From IMG/VR virus record IMGVR_UViG_2721755711_000001: a stretch of DNA of 46,733 nucleotides. The stretch is one strand, 5' to 3'. Source of the stretch: a virus. Taxonomy: Duplodnaviria > Heunggongvirae > Uroviricota > Caudoviricetes. Below, one piece after another: positions 6,411 to 34,680 of the stretch. Made by a program: the position numbers and the translations under genes. Every line of letters starts with the position of its first letter. Position 1 is the first letter of the stretch. Under the pieces are notes generated by a model. The model was not told where the DNA came from and ran no database searches. It saw only the letters and a list, made by a program, of their open reading frames with translations.

Positions 6411-7238
6411 TTATTTAATCTGGATAAATGGTGTATTGGCACCACTGGTCATGTATTGCGGCAGTGTACCGTTCCACTTGTTGATGGCTTCCAGCTCCAT
6501 GACGCCTGGGTTCTGGCGCAGAGCTTCGCCGCGTAAACGAATGGCATCGGCTTCTGCCTGGGCTTTTGTTCGAATGGCATCAGCCTGTCCGGCAGCTTCC
6601 GCACGTAGCATGTTGGCCTCCGCTTCACGTTGCTTGACTTCCTGTTCGCGCTGCAGGGTTTTCTGGTTTGCCGTGACTTTGGCGTTAATGCTGTCGATAA
6701 CGGTTGGAGGGTATTCCGGTTTACCTACATAAGAGAGGCTCATTACCTGAATGCCGATGGGTGTCATCTCTTCCTGAATGTCTTTAAGTGCGGCATCCAG
6801 TAGTTCAGACTTGCCGCCGTCGATAAATTTGTCAGTGGTCATTTTGCTGGCCAGCCGATTGAGTGCGTCGGCAATTTTCTGGCGCAGGTCAGTGTCGGTA
6901 ATGTCATCCACGCCTTTGCGGTAGGTCTGAAACACCGTGGTAACTTTGGATGGATCAACTTTGTAGGCCACACCGATGTGATAGCCGATGGTTGTACCGT
7001 CACTCATCTGGAAACTGAACGGTTCATCGTAGGTCTTCATTTGTTTGAAGGTGGGGAAGATATAAACTTCAGTATTCCAGCCAGTCCAGTAGCGACCAAC
7101 ACCGACCACCTCACCGACGCCTTTGTCGTCGCCCAGTTTATTTACCTTGATGCCAACATTACCTGGTTCAACGCGATCGCAACCGACAAGGCCAATTGTC
7201 GGCAGAACAATGGCTAAAGCAAAAATAATTTTTTTCAT
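6411..7238 (-). CDS. SPFH/band-7 (prohibitin/stomatin-like) lipoprotein with coiled-coil C-terminus
   Basis: Lipobox LVGC after signal peptide; SPFH-like core; Ala/Glu/Gln-rich C-terminal coiled coil. Confidence 0.75.
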   Translation of the reverse strand: MKKIIFALAIVLPTIGLVGCDRVEPGNVGIKVNKLGDDKGVGEVVGVGRYWTGWNTEVYIFPTFKQMKTYDEPFSFQMSDGTTIGYHIGVAYKVDPSKVTTVFQTYRKGVDDITDTDLRQKIADALNRLASKMTTDKFIDGGKSELLDAALKDIQEEMTPIGIQVMSLSYVGKPEYPPTVIDSINAKVTANQKTLQREQEVKQREAEANMLRAEAAGQADAIRTKAQAEADAIRLRGEALRQNPGVMELEAINKWNGTLPQYMTSGANTPFIQIK

Positions 7239-7423
7239 CTTTTATCCTTAGTGAAAGAAAGACCCTTGTAAATGGCATAAATGCAGGGCGGGGTCAGAAA
7301 CGCCAGTGCAAAGCCGGAAATGACTGCTACCGTATCCTTCATGGATATAAGGAACGGGACGAGTAGTCCGTAAATGCATGCGATAATTGCCAGTAAAATT
7401 ACTATTCTGAAATACAATCTCAT
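7235..7423 (-). CDS. Small two-helix membrane protein, overlaps SPFH gene start by 4 bp
   Basis: 62 aa, two hydrophobic segments; stop overlaps downstream start (ATGA). Confidence 0.45.
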   Translation of the reverse strand: MRLYFRIVILLAIIACIYGLLVPFLISMKDTVAVISGFALAFLTPPCIYAIYKGLSFTKDKR

Positions 7424-7600
7424 TGGTTTGTTGCATCCCGATATTTTTAACTGACTGACAGCGCAATAAAGAGAATAATGATTTCTGTTAGTGTCAGTAC
7501 TGTGGCAAGGATTAAAAACAGTTTTACTCTGCTTAATTCACGGTTGCTTTTCATATAAACGGTTAGTAAAAAAACGGAAGAATTATATTCTTCTTAATAT

Positions 7601-8182
7601 TTAATGTGTCACTGGCGCTTCTGGCATACCATGAGTATTCAGATCGTGAATCATTTCATCCAGAAGGAGTTCAAGCCCTTCGCGCCCCATAGCAGAGACA
7701 ATGAAACCATTATCAGGATCTGCGATGAGCATTTTTTGATAGAGAAACAGAACTCGCCCCATGCCTTCAGCTTCACCATATTTTTCAATAAATCCCCATT
7801 CGACATGGTTTTGCAGGGCAATGCGAAGTGGTCCTGGGTATATACTCATGCAACCATGCTTCCCCTTATAAATAACTGCGCGATCTGTAGTTCCGTTATC
7901 GTTAGGGATATCAATGGTACCGTTCTTGTTTTCCTCTTCACTGATAAACGTTGCCACATACAGCCAGCGCCATTGAGCAACCTTCATATCGACTGAAAAT
8001 CTTCCCAGGAATCCGGCATCATCGGCTTCAGCAATACATTGCATGATTCTTAAGCCGTGCCAGTATGGATTGTCGTATTCACCATCATTAAGCCGCTGTA
8101 CGGCCTCAACATAATCAATGGTTGTATTGCCAATTTTTATGCCATGTGGCGTAACTTCTGGTCGGAACTCTGAATGATTCAT
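7601..8182 (-). CDS. Hypothetical protein, unknown function
   Basis: ORF 7601..8239; preferred start is the ATG of MNHSEF at 8182, preceded by GGAG; no recognisable motif. Confidence 0.5.
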   Translation of the reverse strand: MNHSEFRPEVTPHGIKIGNTTIDYVEAVQRLNDGEYDNPYWHGLRIMQCIAEADDAGFLGRFSVDMKVAQWRWLYVATFISEEENKNGTIDIPNDNGTTDRAVIYKGKHGCMSIYPGPLRIALQNHVEWGFIEKYGEAEGMGRVLFLYQKMLIADPDNGFIVSAMGREGLELLLDEMIHDLNTHGMPEAPVTH

Positions 8183-8566
8183 AATGTTTGCTCCTTTGCT
8201 GGTGGAATAATCGTGTAGCCAGCTCTTTTTGCCATCCACAGAAATGTATCCATGCAGCCAACGAATTCATTATCCAACAGATGTTTTGAGTAAATTACTT
8301 CACCATTTTCAATGGTTAGCAACACTCTTACTTTTTATGTGTTATGTTCTGTTGTTTTTCTTTCATTTATTTATCTCCCATATGCTTTGCGCAAATACAG
8401 GTTGGCTATATGAAGATAAGAATCTCCATGTTGTGCAATGAGGCAGGCAGTTTTATACGATGCCTTATTTTTCAGGAAAGTCATAACATAATCTCCTGCG
8501 AATAAAGGTTGCAACAATCCCCGGCGATAAAACCGTAATATATTATTCGAAGATGACTTGTTTTAT

Positions 8567-8932: not shown

Positions 8933-9390
8933 GCGCAAGTATCTCCAGCTGTTGGTTTACCGGTTAACAGCCACATCGGATCGCACCCAAGAACATTTGC
9001 CAGCGGGATAAGCATACTGATGGTTGGTTCATACTTTCCGCTTTCCCACTGGATGATGATTTCTTCATCGAGATCGAGCAGCCTGGCGAGTTCGGCGGTT
9101 GTTAAGCCGCAGGATTCGCGTTGGGTGCGAAGGTTAACCAGCCAGCTTTTAGGGAAGGATTGTTTTTGTTGTGCAGGAGAAGCCGCAGATAGAGCATATT
9201 CATGGATAAATTCCATTACCTCAATGCCCAGTTCCTTTGAGCGAGCACAATCCAGAAGATGGAATGTGCGTACAGCACTTAGCAAATTTGCAATATTTAA
9301 TGCAAAGGAATCAAGTTCTAAGCCCTTAAGCGTAACACAGCCGCAGTTGATAAAATTAGTTGTTTCTGGAGTTGCGTTTAGTGTCTTCAT
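8929..9390 (-). CDS. Two-domain protein: unknown N-terminal domain plus C-terminal XRE/Cro-type helix-turn-helix
   Basis: C-terminal LTTAELARLLDLDEEIIIQWESGKYEPTISMLIPLANVLGCDPMWLLTG is a classic XRE-type HTH. Confidence 0.6.
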   Translation of the reverse strand: MKTLNATPETTNFINCGCVTLKGLELDSFALNIANLLSAVRTFHLLDCARSKELGIEVMEFIHEYALSAASPAQQKQSFPKSWLVNLRTQRESCGLTTAELARLLDLDEEIIIQWESGKYEPTISMLIPLANVLGCDPMWLLTGKPTAGDTCA

Positions 9391-9437
9391 ATATCCACCA
9401 ACAATTTTAAATTGAACTAAATCAAGTTATAATTGAT

Positions 9438-9472
9438 GGTGCGATATTATGCTTTGAGAAATAGGCTGTCAA
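9438..9472 (-). promoter_or_regulatory. Sigma70-type promoter for the 9390->8567 operon
   Basis: Minus strand reads TTGACA - 17 bp - TAATAT, upstream of the 9390 start and downstream of the cI terminator. Confidence 0.45.
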
Positions 9473-28400: not shown

Positions 28401-28742
28401 TCCAAGCCTATCTCTTATTTTAAGATACATCCACTGTCTGGCGTTTCAAGGGGCCGATTCAATTCTTTGCGCTACCACAGTTTTTTATGTAAGTATGGAT
28501 GAAGGGAAAAGAAAGGAAAAACATTTTGTTTTTTGTGATTGTTGTTACATAATAAATAAAAAACAATTGATTATATTGCTGTATTGTGCTGTAAATAAGT
28601 GCTTCACTTTGTCTGGTACTGATTTATTCCCGGGGGTGGAGGGGCATGGCAGATGAAGGGAGGGATGAATCGGGACTTTTTGTTTAATTCGTTGACAGCA
28701 ACAGTCATAAGAGAAAGCAACAATTCACATATGGAGCAGTTT

Positions 28743-29438
28743 ATGAAAACTATCTTCATAGCAGAGCCTGTCGTGACGGCGGGTAACAGTAACAGGCTGA
28801 TTGCGGTGGAAATTCTGAGCCGATTTTATTCTGTTAATGGAAAACAACTTCCTACCGTGAAAACGCTGAATATGTTTACAGCAGAGATGAAAATTGATTT
28901 GCTGGAATTACAGATAAGAAAAATAATAAGTAAAGCTTCTTTTTTTAGCAAGCATAATATACTGTGTTCTCTTAACGTCGATTATGATACATGTCAGTAT
29001 ATATACAGAAATAAAAACATTCAGGATATAATAAAGTCATATGATTTTATTGTTCTTGAGATTTCTGAAACATATCCGGTCATAAAGGCTGATGATGCAA
29101 TAATTCCTTTTCTCATTAATTTGTCAGAACATATCTGGCTGGATGATTTAGGGAGTGGTAACAGTACAATACATACATTGATAAGAAATAAATTCCAGGC
29201 AGTGAAACTTGACAAAAGTTTTTTTCAAAAACACAGTATGAAACCGCATTTTTCTGCATTAATAGACAATATAAAAAGATTTTGCCCTCTGGTTATTGCC
29301 GAGGGTGTTGAAAATAAGGATTATCTGCATGCTGCTTCAGGAACTGGTTTATGGGGGGTTCAGGGATATTATTTTCCATCAGTACAGCTTGAGGATATTC
29401 ATCAGATAAAGTTGGATTTTTCTGAGATCATCAGCTGA
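28743..29438 (+). CDS. Degenerate EAL-domain protein, YdiV-like (probably catalytically inactive)
   Basis: EAL-domain landmarks present but altered (EISE for EAL, DDLGSGNST, VIAEGVE, QGYYF); AT-rich; start at ATG 28743 with GGAG RBS. Confidence 0.65.
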   Translation: MKTIFIAEPVVTAGNSNRLIAVEILSRFYSVNGKQLPTVKTLNMFTAEMKIDLLELQIRKIISKASFFSKHNILCSLNVDYDTCQYIYRNKNIQDIIKSYDFIVLEISETYPVIKADDAIIPFLINLSEHIWLDDLGSGNSTIHTLIRNKFQAVKLDKSFFQKHSMKPHFSALIDNIKRFCPLVIAEGVENKDYLHAASGTGLWGVQGYYFPSVQLEDIHQIKLDFSEIIS

Positions 29439-30582
29439 TGAGTCTGTCATACTCTTTCTTCCCTGACATATCTGGGCAGTGTTTAAGCATAATAGTCATA
29501 AGAAAACTGGTTATTATATTTTCCGAGGTGGAATTCAGAACAGGTTTCCCTTTTCGAGCTCAAGCTGTTAATTCTTTGGGAAGAGCTCCGGATGCGTAAC
29601 GTATTTCCAGCTCTCCCGTAAAATACCATCCTAGTAACATAGTAAAGGTTCAGACAAATCACATCTGTGTATTGATGAGCACAACATTTACCATAGAAGG
29701 CCAGCATTACATTGACAAACGTCAGTGGTCTGTTCTGTGGATCCTGGTTCCGGGCATATCCAAATACCTGACGGAAATATTTTTCCTGTGGTCGGGTTAA
29801 TCTGTTAGTACCAGTGATATATAAGACGGTCAAAGATCGTGGTGTTGACACGACATTAGATTATCAGGCAGTTCACAATTTCATGGAACCATGTAAATGG
29901 ATTGTCACGCTATCGGGTCAGGAAGGGCAGGAACAATTAGTATCTGTACAGTAATTACAAAAGTGTCTTCATGCCGACTAAAAAGTTTCCTTTCTTTTTC
30001 CATGCAATTAGCGTGATGTTTACATGAAAAAGTGTTGGTAATTAATGAATAAGTATTTTCAGGATAATCAGTATCTCTGAAACGAAATTCACCTGTTTAC
30101 ATGTGAACAAAAAAGCAACTCATAATATTACTGTCTTTTGTTTTTCCATTTTTTGATATACTTGTTTTTGATTTTTGTCTAATTTTTGCTTTTTTGTTTG
30201 TACGGTTAAAAATGCTGCTTAATGCAAATTAAACGATCTTTTTATTTGTTATTTTGCTGCCTATTGGAGTTATTTTTTGTGTTTTTTGTGCTTTTTGGTT
30301 TGTTTGTCTTTATTGTGTCGTTTTTGCAGATAAAAAGATCGTTTTTTGTTATTTACTGGGATAAAGTATCTATATATCCTGTGTGCGAATTTTATTCTTT
30401 CTCTGTTTTATGGTTAAGGAGAAGATGTGCAAAAAAAGTAAAAGAGAAGGATGTTTTAATACCAGGAAAGGTATTTGAGTTTGTTTTTCCGTTGTTAATG
30501 GAGTTGTCTTCGGTTCGTAGTGAGAGGGTTATTTATGCGCTCAGGGATTTTCTGGTCTGGGGATATACAAGGTGTGAAAGGT

Positions 30583-31635
30583 ATGTGGTGTGAGAAAATA
30601 ATTTATCTTTTTGTTTTTATATCAGGTTGTTCATTTGCATATGAACCTTGTCGTGATATGCAAATATTGTGGCAGTTAGATGGTAACAATGTTACTATTC
30701 CGGATGTAACAATTTCCTCAGGAAACACAGCAAGTTATTTTGATATTGTATTGCCCGGTCTGGCACCAAGAACGTCTGCAGTTGTTAGCTGGGTCCAGCG
30801 TCATAATGTGCCTGTTAGCTCGCCGGTTAAGATTCTTTCGGGTAAAGGCTCAAAGAGTCAGGCAACATGGATTGCGATGCCAGTTGATAGTAATAACATA
30901 CGATTGGGTAATGGTCTGAAAGGGAGTATTCAGATTATTTCCGGGGGGTATAATAAACGTGGTATTTATAATGGTTATCAGACTTACGTTGGTGTTTATG
31001 ATAACTATGATTGGTATGACAGACCATTCCCAGAAGGAGAAATTGTCCCGGGATACAGATATCCTCTGGTATATAACAACTTTCAGAGTACCAAATTGAG
31101 GGTAACGATAGAGAGGGGCAGTGCTTTAGCCGGAATATATGATTTAAACATTCCGCTAAAAATAGGATCTGAGGAATGGTATAAGGGGGAAAAATATTGT
31201 TCTGATGGTGGGGGTGTTGAGTCTGCAGTAGTTAATATGGAGAACAGATATGCCCCTGTAAGAGTGAATGTTCTGGCATCCTGTAATATAGCAGGGAATA
31301 AAGATATATCAATAAATCATAATGCAATAACATCAGCCCAGGCTCGTGATGGACACTTTGCTAAGGCCGGATTAGTGATTAATTGCAGTTCACCAACCAG
31401 AGTAGATATAACCATTAAAGGTAGTAATCTAATATCAGGGGAAGGGGGGAATGTAACTCGATGTGGAGATAATGGAAAGTGCACATTGACTGTTGATGGT
31501 GCGAAGGAATTTTCGGGGGTTATCAGTGGAAGTAGAACATTTGATATAACGTCACAATATAGGGTTATAGATACAAACAGAATTGATGCTGGATCGTTTT
31601 CTGGCAGTGCGATAGCTACCGTATTGATGCAGTAA
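30583..31635 (+). CDS. Putative surface lipoprotein, Gly/Asn/Ser-rich, unknown function
   Basis: Signal peptide with lipobox FISGC; start at MWCEK within ORF 30520..31635; AT-rich. Confidence 0.45.
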   Translation: MWCEKIIYLFVFISGCSFAYEPCRDMQILWQLDGNNVTIPDVTISSGNTASYFDIVLPGLAPRTSAVVSWVQRHNVPVSSPVKILSGKGSKSQATWIAMPVDSNNIRLGNGLKGSIQIISGGYNKRGIYNGYQTYVGVYDNYDWYDRPFPEGEIVPGYRYPLVYNNFQSTKLRVTIERGSALAGIYDLNIPLKIGSEEWYKGEKYCSDGGGVESAVVNMENRYAPVRVNVLASCNIAGNKDISINHNAITSAQARDGHFAKAGLVINCSSPTRVDITIKGSNLISGEGGNVTRCGDNGKCTLTVDGAKEFSGVISGSRTFDITSQYRVIDTNRIDAGSFSGSAIATVLMQ

Positions 31636-31809
31636 TCACATCTTTCATTAGCTTGTCCTTTGTTAGTTGTTATCATGTTAATGATGTGATTTGTCGAAAG
31701 TTTTGACGATAATTAATTCTTTTTCTTCTCTGAATCTGTAGGGGGATGTATGATAGTTCTTACTATTGTAAAAATACTCCTCCTAGAGATTATATGGTTG
31801 GTATTACGC

Positions 31810-34599: not shown

Positions 34600-34680
34600 C
34601 TGCTCCGCTGTTAATAGAATAAAACGATCGATAAAACAGGTATCGATCGTTGGTATCGATCGTTTATGGTGGTTAATGGC
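34600..34680 (+). promoter_or_regulatory. Ag43 phase-variation switch: three Dam GATC sites (expected OxyR-binding region)
   Basis: GATC at 34626, 34645 and 34658 in AACGATCGATAAAACAGGTATCGATCGTTGGTATCGATCG, upstream of the Ag43 start. Confidence 0.7.

Follow-up and report, generated by a model that had tools for sequence, protein, structure and literature searches.

Two GATC-containing inverted repeats in a 46,733-nt stretch of DNA from a Caudoviricetes record (IMG/VR IMGVR_UViG_2721755711_000001; the whole stretch is called the window below) are very probably the DNA of a Pap-family Dam/Lrp switch, left by an operon that was deleted internally. The locus lies on a mosaic island rich in IS elements, where it is what an internal deletion has left of a pap-like operon. 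The mechanism is known, not new, from the fimbrial operons of E. coli, and the locus is a further example of a Pap-type switch. Judging from the sequence, the chances that phase variation still takes place here come close to even at best. The features of the locus are listed in Table 1.

Table 1. Features of the switch and of the adjacent genes (positions are those of the window)
Feature	Position	Strand	Details and basis
Distal GATC box (GATC-dist / GATC-I equivalent)	30231..30248	.	GATC 30235-30238, within ACGATC; sequence and inverted-repeat search
T/G-rich inter-box spacer	30249..30326	+	Two tandem TTTTTTGTG 9-mers (30273-30281, 30282-30290) and a degenerate third copy (30291-30299)
Proximal GATC box (GATC-prox / GATC-II equivalent)	30327..30344	.	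GATC 30337-30340; GATCGT = minus-strand ACGATC
Putative papBA-type promoter	30352..30380	+	-35-like TTTACT 30352-30357; -10-like TATATC 30373-30378 or TATCCT 30375-30380
Truncated papB/focB-family regulator ORF (pseudogene)	30441..30593	+	tblastn; alignment to the intact RM8082 gene
PapG-like two-domain fimbrial tip-adhesin gene	30583..31635	+	350 aa from ATG 30583; AlphaFold2 and Foldseek
Recombination/deletion junction, papB-lineage DNA to 5' end of PapG-like gene	30586..30591	.	Homology limits

The sequence AAACGATCTTTTTAT lies at 30231-30245 on the plus strand, and its exact reverse complement, ATAAAAAGATCGTTT, lies at 30330-30344, with 84 nt between the exact arms; when one mismatch was allowed, the arms extended to 18 nt (30231-30248 and 30327-30344; 94% complementary, 78 nt apart). 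The pair of exact 15-mers seen in the first-pass annotation is thus real, but its right arm had been placed 1 nt off, at 30331-30345. One GATC in each arm and strong T-richness of the region 30120-30400 had also been noted, and both observations were confirmed (54.8% T and 74% A+T in the region; 53% A+T in the whole window). Intrinsic curvature, which had been thought probable, was not established: the T-tracts were without regular ~10.5 bp phasing (gaps between the tracts, taken as a proxy for curvature: 5, 8, 16, 7, 11, 7, 49, 13, 21, 9, 10, 29 and 21). The GATC-to-GATC distance was 102 bp (30337 - 30235), and no GATC other than these two was present between 29835 and 31166. Both were in the ACGATC context (at 30233 on the plus strand, and as GATCGT at 30337 for the minus strand); ACGATC was reportedly identified by Hernday et al. 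in 2003 as the sequence needed for PapI-dependent Lrp binding.

The signature of the Pap family used here was that of PMC2909390, in which the GATC boxes are "conserved at 102 bp spacing" and to which a PapI-like protein also belongs; the Dam/Lrp mechanism of the family is described in PMC11316696, PMC9820224 and PMC10073500. The core pattern of the boxes is CGATCTTTT / AAAAGATCG, the boxes of the window are ACGATCTTTTTAT / AAAAAGATCGT, and the core in the window was identical to that in pap of CFT073 and in the loci L003, L004, L146 and L039. The same box pair, with 101-103 bp spacing, recurred in eight homologous loci with diverged intervening sequence. In the alignment of these nine switches, the invariant columns were confined to the two boxes: AAAGATCG of the proximal box was invariant in 9/9, and the distal box, which aligned with the distal box of pap CFT073 (TTTAGACGATCTTTTATGC), was kept in eight of the nine (exception: L009, AATC). 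The length of the spacer between the boxes was conserved across the switch families, and its sequence was not. Loci of the same design linked to papB had spacings of 103 bp (L003) and 102 bp (L004, L146, L039 from Edwardsiella, and L105). The proximal flank TTGCAG-N2-3-AAAAGATCGT was common to the window, L146, L009 and L007, and its sharing with the operons that have the adhesin family of the window (see below) supports the descent of switch and adhesin from one operon.

Over 14 assemblies of the locus itself, both boxes, including ACGATC, were intact in all, and the sole box change was 1 nt in the T-run of the distal box; in the four assemblies that have it, the box reads as in canonical pap. 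The spacing was 101 bp in four assemblies, 102 bp in eight, 103 bp in one and 120 bp in one (strain RM8082, in which four copies of the 9-mer give the longer distance). Such drift among strains (101, 102, 103 and 120 bp) is unexpected under strict functional constraint, although the differences of 1 bp may also stem from assembly errors in homopolymer length. A collection-wide scan of contigs with CGATCTTTT-N88-93-AAAAGATCG gave at least 120 matches, mostly chance ones in unrelated phyla (~52 expected), and is uninformative on distribution; the pattern is too unspecific, and TGCAGNNNAAAAGATCGT, or both boxes plus flanks, is more specific. Among the scan matches listed, adjacent PapB or PapI homologues were present only in L039/L049 (Edwardsiella hoshinae), L105 and L143.

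When compared with the papI-papB regulatory region of pap, the P-fimbrial operon of uropathogenic E. coli, in CFT073 (L013; boxes ACGATCTTTTAT / AAAAGATCGT), the window has the same 102-bp spacing, the ATTTAC...ATAAA block 3' of the proximal box and an AT-rich intergenic region, and the equivalent of the PapB start is 116 bp past GATC-prox (109 bp to the papB ATG in pap). Unlike pap, the window is without a divergent papI, its papB-family ORF is truncated and probably without a start, and its downstream operon is cut to a single PapG-like gene; a CRP-site search of the region gave a best match with 3 mismatches (1 in pap), and the sequence outside the boxes was not alignable, the spacer of the window being T/G-rich with 9-mer repeats.

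The complete operons of L146 and of L009/L010 (papB - pilin - usher - chaperone - PapJ - minor pilins - adhesin) resemble the window in the proximal flank TTGCAG(N2-3)AAAAGATCGT, in the T/G-rich spacer, in the spacing (102 bp in L146), in papB lying 111-112 bp past the proximal box (111 bp in L146), and in a terminal gene 58-61% identical to the window adhesin; no papI homologue was detected beside their switch either. However, the window retains only the two ends of such an operon, its papB lineage is nearer at the DNA level to RM8082 and daaA-like genes, and in L009 the distal GATC is lost (AATC). The daa/afa/fae/clp-type locus (L003; boxes ACGATCTTTTTAT / ATAAAGATCG, 103 bp) has a T/G-rich spacer much like that of the window, and no named PapB homologue is closer at the DNA level than its DaaA (80% over 62 nt), but the window has neither the divergent FaeA/PapI gene nor the full set of fimbrial genes of this F1845/K88-type operon (FaeA/PapI <-> DaaA).

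According to the published description, the pix operon (Pix pili), a PapB-family locus related to pap whose regulatory region is truncated, phase-varies with no PapI-type protein in that region (PMC12388093), and it is a precedent for pap-like loci that lack PapI; in this comparison by literature, it differs from the window in being a complete, functional fimbrial operon. In L007/L008, a 102-bp box pair (GCGATCTTTTT / TATAAAAGATCGT) lies directly 5' of a stand-alone PapG-like gene whose product is 73% identical to the window adhesin. L007/L008 differ in that the distal box is GCGATC, not ACGATC, similarity of the intergenic DNA near the distal box is no more than ~75%, no papB remnant was found (tblastn of L007), and the flanking genes are others: the neighbour is an intimin/invasin-like gene, and the adhesin gene is followed by a 322-aa ORF (6758-7723), whereas in the window and L005 it is followed by an IS481-family transposase gene.

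Switches of the agn43/gtr type, governed by Dam and OxyR, have three to four GATCs within one OxyR binding region (up to ~40-115 bp) that overlaps the promoter. This type was rejected for the repeats, which have two GATCs only, 102 bp apart and in the pap-type box context. A Dam/OxyR-like GATC cluster was seen elsewhere in the window, 5' of cah (Ag43/Cah autotransporter) on the same island.

A consensus scan for promoters and terminators (29900-30700) gave no plus-strand sigma-70 promoter 3' of GATC-prox and no terminators, and because of this the promoter was assigned by alignment alone: its ATTTAC...ATAAA block aligned with the equivalent block just 3' of GATC-prox in pap CFT073, L004 and L003. 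The putative promoter would be of the papBA type, and its match is weak.

The papB remnant between the repeats and the adhesin gene had been absent from the first-pass annotation. It matched DaaA of L003 (E = 2e-12), PapB of L004 (E = 1e-13) and the RM8082 homologue (E = 9e-40) in tblastn. It has no proper in-frame start, a 9-bp deletion removes K-E-V, the C-terminal half is lost, and the stop codon is at 30591-30593. At identical loci, RefSeq has a 31-aa "PapB/FocB family" fragment, and Pfam PapB was called on a 70-aa ORF in L015 and others. Since papB is truncated, the positive feedback loop of pap cannot run in cis. No PapI/FaeA homologue was found in the 46.7-kb window by tblastn with three diverse PapI/FaeA proteins (best E = 0.85), nor was one found in L001, L002, L007, L009 or L146; a PapI homologue elsewhere in the carrier genome is possible.

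The gene downstream had been annotated as a putative surface lipoprotein gene. According to the structure model, its product is a PapG/MrpH-like tip adhesin with an N-terminal lectin domain and a C-terminal incomplete-Ig pilin domain. The AlphaFold2 model (pLDDT 83.4) matched full-length PapG in the PDB by Foldseek (6cd2_B, E = 7.7e-17; 7lhg_G, E = 8.2e-16), and also the PapG lectin domain (TM 0.73) and the PapG pilin domain (TM 0.77) separately. Pfam and NCBIfam gave no match on the window protein itself, and the identification was made via the Pfam labels of the homologues (MrpH_C, weak PapG_C), synteny and the structure model. The homologues are the last gene of complete papB-pilin-usher-chaperone operons in six operon contexts, of which L146 has the same switch. 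The lipoprotein assignment is contradicted by the family: the cysteine that gives a lipobox-like ISGC (lipobox pattern [LVI][ASTG][GA]C) was present in only 2/20 homologues, namely P0002 and the window protein, while the remaining 18 have ...SG(D/R/N)VFA↓ (in L007, ...SNYSFA↓), the consensus of the family being a site for signal peptidase I, ...VFA↓Y.PC. The gene is AT-rich, as had been described, only moderately (GC 0.39-0.44). Alternative starts are GTG 30574, ATG 30535 and GTG 30520, and the start codon sits in papB-derived sequence. The ORF was intact in 12 of the 13 other assemblies, and was interrupted by IS2 in strain 52F4; the assemblies are nearly identical, so that these intact ORFs are recent.

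The homology with RM8082 spans 30400-30585, and that with the adhesin lineages (L024, L005 and L009) begins at 30591-30595. The junction is sharp, and the identity of its sequence in 13 assemblies (the window and 12 others) shows a single origin. Usher, chaperone, PapJ and pilin genes were not found in the window (tblastn; hits with E <= 1 were noise only). As neither a PapI nor an intact PapB is encoded in the window, and the genes for usher, chaperone and pilin are missing, the locus was identified as a relic of internal deletion. RM8082 was rejected as the intact parent of the adhesin part, since its 324-aa downstream protein is only marginally similar (E = 0.055). The locus was present in 3/5,426 complete E. 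coli genomes, and megablast of 29900-31700 against the plasmid collection gave no match. The surroundings are IS-rich (IS3, IS481, IS21 and an integrase fragment).

The ancestor was very probably a pap-like chaperone-usher operon of the L146/L009 type, from which an internal deletion took everything between mid-papB and the very start of the terminal gene, including its opening codons, so that the switch and its putative promoter now face a papB fragment fused to the PapG-like gene. By analogy with pap, the distal box may be the centre of the distal, activating putative Lrp site (site 5) and the proximal box that of the proximal, repressing putative Lrp site (site 2) (PMC11316696, PMC9820224). 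In switches of this family, the binding of Lrp is cooperative and is centred on one box or the other. At the proximal box, Lrp overlaps the promoter, represses transcription and keeps Dam off the proximal GATC, with the distal GATC methylated (OFF); at the distal box, in most cases together with a PapI-family protein that recognises ACGATC, it activates the promoter, with the proximal GATC methylated (ON). Each state is heritable through methylation of the unoccupied site.

We infer that Lrp and Dam may still act on the boxes of the window. Since no PapI and no functional PapB is encoded locally, the switch is predicted to be mostly OFF, with Lrp at the proximal box; turning it ON would require that some other fimbrial operon of the genome supplies a PapI-family protein in trans. 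Any adhesin made here would depend on the chaperone and usher of a different system. Methylation-dependent phase variation, as had been proposed at the start, is therefore the right kind of mechanism as far as the box sequence, the 102-bp spacing and the papB position are as in pap, but the PapI/PapB co-regulators are missing and the assignment is one by homology. H-NS silencing, also raised there, is plausible as an added layer, given the 74% A+T here and by analogy with the pap regulatory region, which is an H-NS target (PMC11316696); it leaves the repeats unexplained.

The same DNA may instead be an inactive fossil, with inherited boxes that are silent (e.g. coated by H-NS) and decaying. 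This reading, which we consider unlikely, gives the same identity to the DNA and differs on its present activity only. Much of the locus fits decay: papB is truncated, papI and the usher, chaperone and pilin genes are missing, the surroundings are filled with IS elements and one of them breaks the adhesin gene in 52F4, the locus is rare among complete genomes, the promoter match is weak, the 74% A+T of the region would be prone to H-NS, and the box spacing has drifted, up to 120 bp in RM8082. However, neither box has been lost from any of the 14 assemblies, and the adhesin ORF persists in nearly all of them, although these are nearly identical and so recent. Lrp and Dam are encoded by the host, so that, as inferred from pap, the cis elements should still be bound. 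Moreover, a second lineage, L007/L008, has diverged and yet keeps an intact 102-bp pair directly 5' of an orphan homologue.

Inversion-based phase variation, the other kind that had been suggested, takes the repeats as recombination sites between which a segment of ~84 bp would flip a promoter, as in fimS. A perfect 15-nt (imperfect 18-nt) inverted repeat around a short promoter-proximal segment has the form of such an element, but the proposal is barely credible. It is not supported, because one orientation is shared by all 14 independent assemblies, in which the T-rich strand is the coding strand, as it is in each of the eight homologous switches. In the locus L001, which is 99.6% identical, the annotation within ~9 kb of the site has IS transposases only and neither an invertase nor a tyrosine recombinase. 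In addition, the putative promoter lies outside the segment, 3' of the right arm, their identity as GATC boxes fully accounts for the repeats, and 84 bp is far below the length of known invertible switches, e.g. the 314-bp fimS (PMC9993118).

A hairpin in a transcript (an attenuator, terminator or sRNA) has similarly negligible prospects. The 132-nt stretch folds at -26.7 kcal/mol, with z = -4.5 against shuffles, but such a z-score is a trivial consequence of any 18-nt inverted repeat. The region is 5' of the putative promoter, and neither an Rfam match nor a terminator-like site was found there (Rfam gave only a sub-threshold chance match with CRISPR-DR at 29878-29908). Among the homologues, the arms are kept as sequence (GATC core, fixed 102-bp spacing) with no compensatory change, and the stem stops at the boxes. 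Finally, a chance inverted repeat in a low-complexity stretch, with 55% T and several further short repeats, has virtually no probability, as ~0.14 15-mer matches with up to two mismatches were expected in the whole window against the 2 observed, and it is refuted by the finding of these boxes, equally spaced, beside papB homologues in independent loci that have diverged in other respects.

The textbook GATC-box signature of Pap can thus be recognized from raw sequence, and it persists intact at a degenerate locus where automatic annotation gives a 31-aa "PapB/FocB" fragment and a "hypothetical protein"; the hypothetical or "lipoprotein" gene is re-annotated here as a PapG-like fimbrial adhesin gene. 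It is quite improbable that the deletion created (and in L007/L008 independently re-created) a compact, phase-variable orphan adhesin cassette, in which a Pap-type switch would directly drive a stand-alone PapG-like adhesin, the adhesin would be built into the fimbriae of another chaperone-usher system (adhesin swapping), and switching would be triggered in trans by PapI-family proteins from other operons; if this were true, the receptor specificity of a heterologous pilus would be under epigenetic bet-hedging. If the switch is active, the locus would be a natural test of which parts of the Pap circuit (PapI, PapB and CRP) are dispensable for Lrp/Dam bistability, and of whether the PapI of other operons cross-activates orphan switches.

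The region 30120-30400 is 54.8% T and 74% A+T (whole window, 53% A+T), the T-richness as such having been described in the first-pass annotation, and it contains an inverted repeat whose exact 15-nt arms had been recognized with the right arm placed one base off (corrected in the table). With one mismatch allowed, the arms extend to 18 nt each; by chance, about 0.14 matches to the 15-mer are expected in the whole window. Each arm carries one GATC, as had also been reported, both in the context ACGATC. The two GATCs are exactly 102 bp apart and are the only ones between 29835 and 31166 (>1.3 kb). A second, perfect 13-nt inverted repeat, with 67 nt between its arms, was observed just upstream of the distal box, roughly where the region of the CRP site and PapB site 1 sits in pap. 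A gene for an EAL-domain (c-di-GMP phosphodiesterase-like) protein precedes the switch by about 800 bp on the same strand, and its position is kept in strain RM8082 and in every assembly of the locus reaching that far upstream; the gene is split or shortened in some of them (L016, L023).

Coordinates of the features discussed
Feature	Record	Position	Remark
EAL-domain gene	window	28653-29438	
13-nt inverted repeat	window	30106-30118 and 30186-30198	AACAAAAAAGCAA / TTGCTTTTTTGTT
Distal GATC box	window	30231-30248	GATC at 30235
Left 15-nt arm	window	30231-30245	AAACGATCTTTTTAT
Tandem 9-mers TTTTTTGTG	window	30273-30299	2 units
Tandem 9-mers TTTTTTGTG	L002 (RM8082)	9332-9452	4 units
Proximal GATC box	window	30327-30344	GATC at 30337
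Right 15-nt arm	window	30330-30344	exact reverse complement of left arm
papB leader	window	30416-30478	
papB-family ORF	window	30441-30590	
PapG-like adhesin gene	window	30583-31635 (+)	
Three-GATC cluster	window	34620-34665	GATCs at 34626, 34645, 34658
cah/Ag43-family ATG	window	34880	
GATC-box pair	L007	5093-5195	also in L008
Orphan PapG-like gene	L007	5382-6440	also in L008
FaeA/PapI-family gene and second PapI-like sequence	L005	4566-4781 and 6611-6769	
FaeA/PapI-family gene and second PapI-like sequence	L145	8807-9022 and 10845-11015	
IS2 in PapG-like gene	L006 (52F4)	7109-8337	

In RefSeq, a 31-aa 'PapB/FocB family fimbrial expression regulator' fragment is annotated directly downstream at two near-identical chromosomal loci, those of PapRG-04-4 (99.6% identity) and 52F4 (99.9%), and in RM8082 the intergenic region, common to the window at 94% identity, is followed by a 104-aa PapB/FocB gene. 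These annotations next to the repeats suggested a Dam/Lrp epigenetic switch of the Pap family, and the window was compared directly with the canonical papI-papB region of CFT073. The distal box is TTTAGACGATCTTTTATGC in CFT073 and ATTAAACGATCTTTTTATTTG in the window, the proximal box is GGTTAAAAGATCGTTTAAA and AGATAAAAAGATCGTTTTTTG, respectively, and the GATC spacing is 102 bp in both; the proximal GATC lies 109 bp from the papB ATG in CFT073 and 116 bp from the conserved PapB start-equivalent in the window. The same box design was found in an operon of the daa/fae type whose FaeA/PapI gene is divergent (L003, spacing 103 bp), in an operon on an ECOR29 plasmid (L004, 102 bp), in L146, a complete operon (102 bp, with papB 111 bp downstream), and at a papB-linked locus of Edwardsiella hoshinae (L039, 102 bp). 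When nine regions were aligned, the only invariant columns were C·ATCTTTT and AAAGATCG, and the spacer kept its length and not its sequence, which fits a signature in the DNA that proteins and a methylase recognize. The proximal-box flank TTGCAG-N2-3-AAAAGATCGT is common to the window, L146 and L009, the latter two being operons with the same adhesin family. The window thus adds a new, degenerate member to the Pap family of Dam/Lrp switches, a family long known; judged by box sequence, 102-bp spacing and papB position, all as in pap, the earlier proposal of methylation-dependent phase variation appears essentially right.

The downstream gene had been called a lipoprotein gene. This label is unsupported, since a lipobox-like ISG-C is confined to 2 of the 20 members of the family and the consensus at the signal peptide end is a signal-peptidase-I site (...VFA|Y.PC). 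The product itself matched nothing in Pfam and NCBIfam searches; Pfam matches to MrpH_C ('fimbrial adhesin MrpH C-terminal domain'), and weak ones to PapG_C, were seen in many of its homologues. The AlphaFold2 model, for which 20 homologues were used (pLDDT 83.4), had full-length PapG as its best structure matches (6cd2_B, E = 7.7e-17; 7lhg_G, E = 8.2e-16), with TM of 0.73 against the lectin domain and 0.77 against the pilin domain, followed by LpfD, CupB6 and FimH. In six independent contexts a homologue closes a complete operon with the gene order (papB)–pilin–usher–chaperone–(PapJ)–minor pilins.

The papB-family ORF (tblastn, E = 2e-12 to 9e-40) has a 9-bp deletion relative to RM8082, with loss of K-E-V. 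Its homology to RM8082 stops at ~30585, the stop codon is at 30591-30593, and from 30591-30595 on the DNA homology switches to a family of genes represented in L024, L005 and L009, beginning at their 5' end; the present ATG of the adhesin lies within papB-derived sequence. Most simply, an L146-like operon would have undergone an internal deletion by which the middle of papB was fused to the first codons of the tip-adhesin gene, and the identical junction in 12 other assemblies indicates a single origin. Note that the papB leader appears damaged even ahead of the truncation: a strong SD (AAGGAG) and the ATG at 30425 open a 17-codon ORF out of the papB frame with an A7 run (30431-30437), and the ATG at 30451, equivalent to the L004 PapB start, reads ATG TTT TAA because of two extra T's. 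This damage is common to 14/14 assemblies, including the 'intact' gene of RM8082, and thus the PapB of RM8082 may likewise be without a proper start.

The window contains the cis elements of a Pap-type switch. With the two-state scheme of pap as the model (PMC11316696, PMC9820224, PMC10073500), we infer that Lrp and Dam occupy its boxes as follows. In the OFF state, Lrp around the proximal box and the adjacent promoter would block transcription and shield the proximal GATC from Dam, the distal GATC being methylated; in the ON state, Lrp would shift to the distal box, for which PapI is needed in pap, the proximal GATC would become methylated and transcription would go ahead. The window was found to contain no gene for a PapI/FaeA homologue, an usher, a chaperone, PapJ or a pilin, nor a CRP site comparable to the one in pap, and no papI was found adjoining the switch in L146 and L009 either. 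Because neither PapI nor a functional PapB is encoded locally, the locus is predicted to be predominantly OFF and to turn ON only via a PapI-family protein from another fimbrial operon; a foreign chaperone and usher would be needed for the orphan adhesin. In the related operons L005 and L145, one branch of the adhesin's operon family, a FaeA/PapI gene lies near the 3' end, which is unusual in view of pap, where papI is divergent; it precedes dsbA and the adhesin, and a second PapI-like sequence follows just downstream of the adhesin.

The serious alternative is that the switch is an inert fossil, no longer active. In its favor, the GATC spacing differs among strains, being 101 bp in four assemblies, 102 bp in eight, 103 bp in one and 120 bp in RM8082; T-runs in or beside the boxes that differ by 1 nt give the first three values, and two additional TTTTTTGTG units the last. 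Of the 12 other assemblies with the same junction, 11 keep an intact adhesin ORF, and the 52F4 copy (one of three complete carrier genomes) is broken by IS2, which is consistent with ongoing decay. The adhesin copies are 349-350/350 identical, and this near-identity is uninformative on selection. The locus is rare (3/5,426 complete E. coli genomes) and is surrounded by IS3, IS481 and IS21 elements. Silencing of the AT-rich region by H-NS is plausible as an extra layer, as in pap; it does not account for the repeats. Inversion of the spacer between the repeats, which had also been suggested, is not supported: the spacer has one orientation in 14/14 assemblies and in every homologous switch, the annotation of the 99.6%-identical locus shows no invertase within about 9 kb, and a recombination site does not fit the nine-region conservation pattern. 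An RNA hairpin is likewise not supported, as an RNA helix does not fit that pattern, Rfam gave no match and the fold z-score of -4.5 only restates the repeat.

L007 and L008 have a GATC-box pair, diverged in sequence and spaced at 102 bp, immediately upstream of an orphan gene for a PapG-like adhesin (73% identity to that of the window); no papB remnant was found in the locus, which adjoins a 1081-aa intimin/invasin-like gene. This may be a second example of a switch plus a stand-alone PapG-like adhesin and could point to a recurring, possibly functional cassette, a reading that is unlikely with two lineages only. In E. hoshinae NBRC 105699, at least three loci (L039, L049, L025) have an exact GATC-box pair with pap-like spacing, two of them adjoining PapB or PapI homologues, so that switches of the Pap type seem to exist in multiple copies beyond Escherichia and Salmonella. 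Within the window itself, three GATCs lie within 36 bp (AAAACGATCGATAAAACAGGTATCGATCGTTGGTATCGATCGTTTATGG), ~210 bp upstream of the ATG of a cah/Ag43-family autotransporter gene. This cluster looks like an agn43-type Dam/OxyR phase-variation region; if it is one, the window holds two different Dam-dependent switches ~4.3 kb apart.
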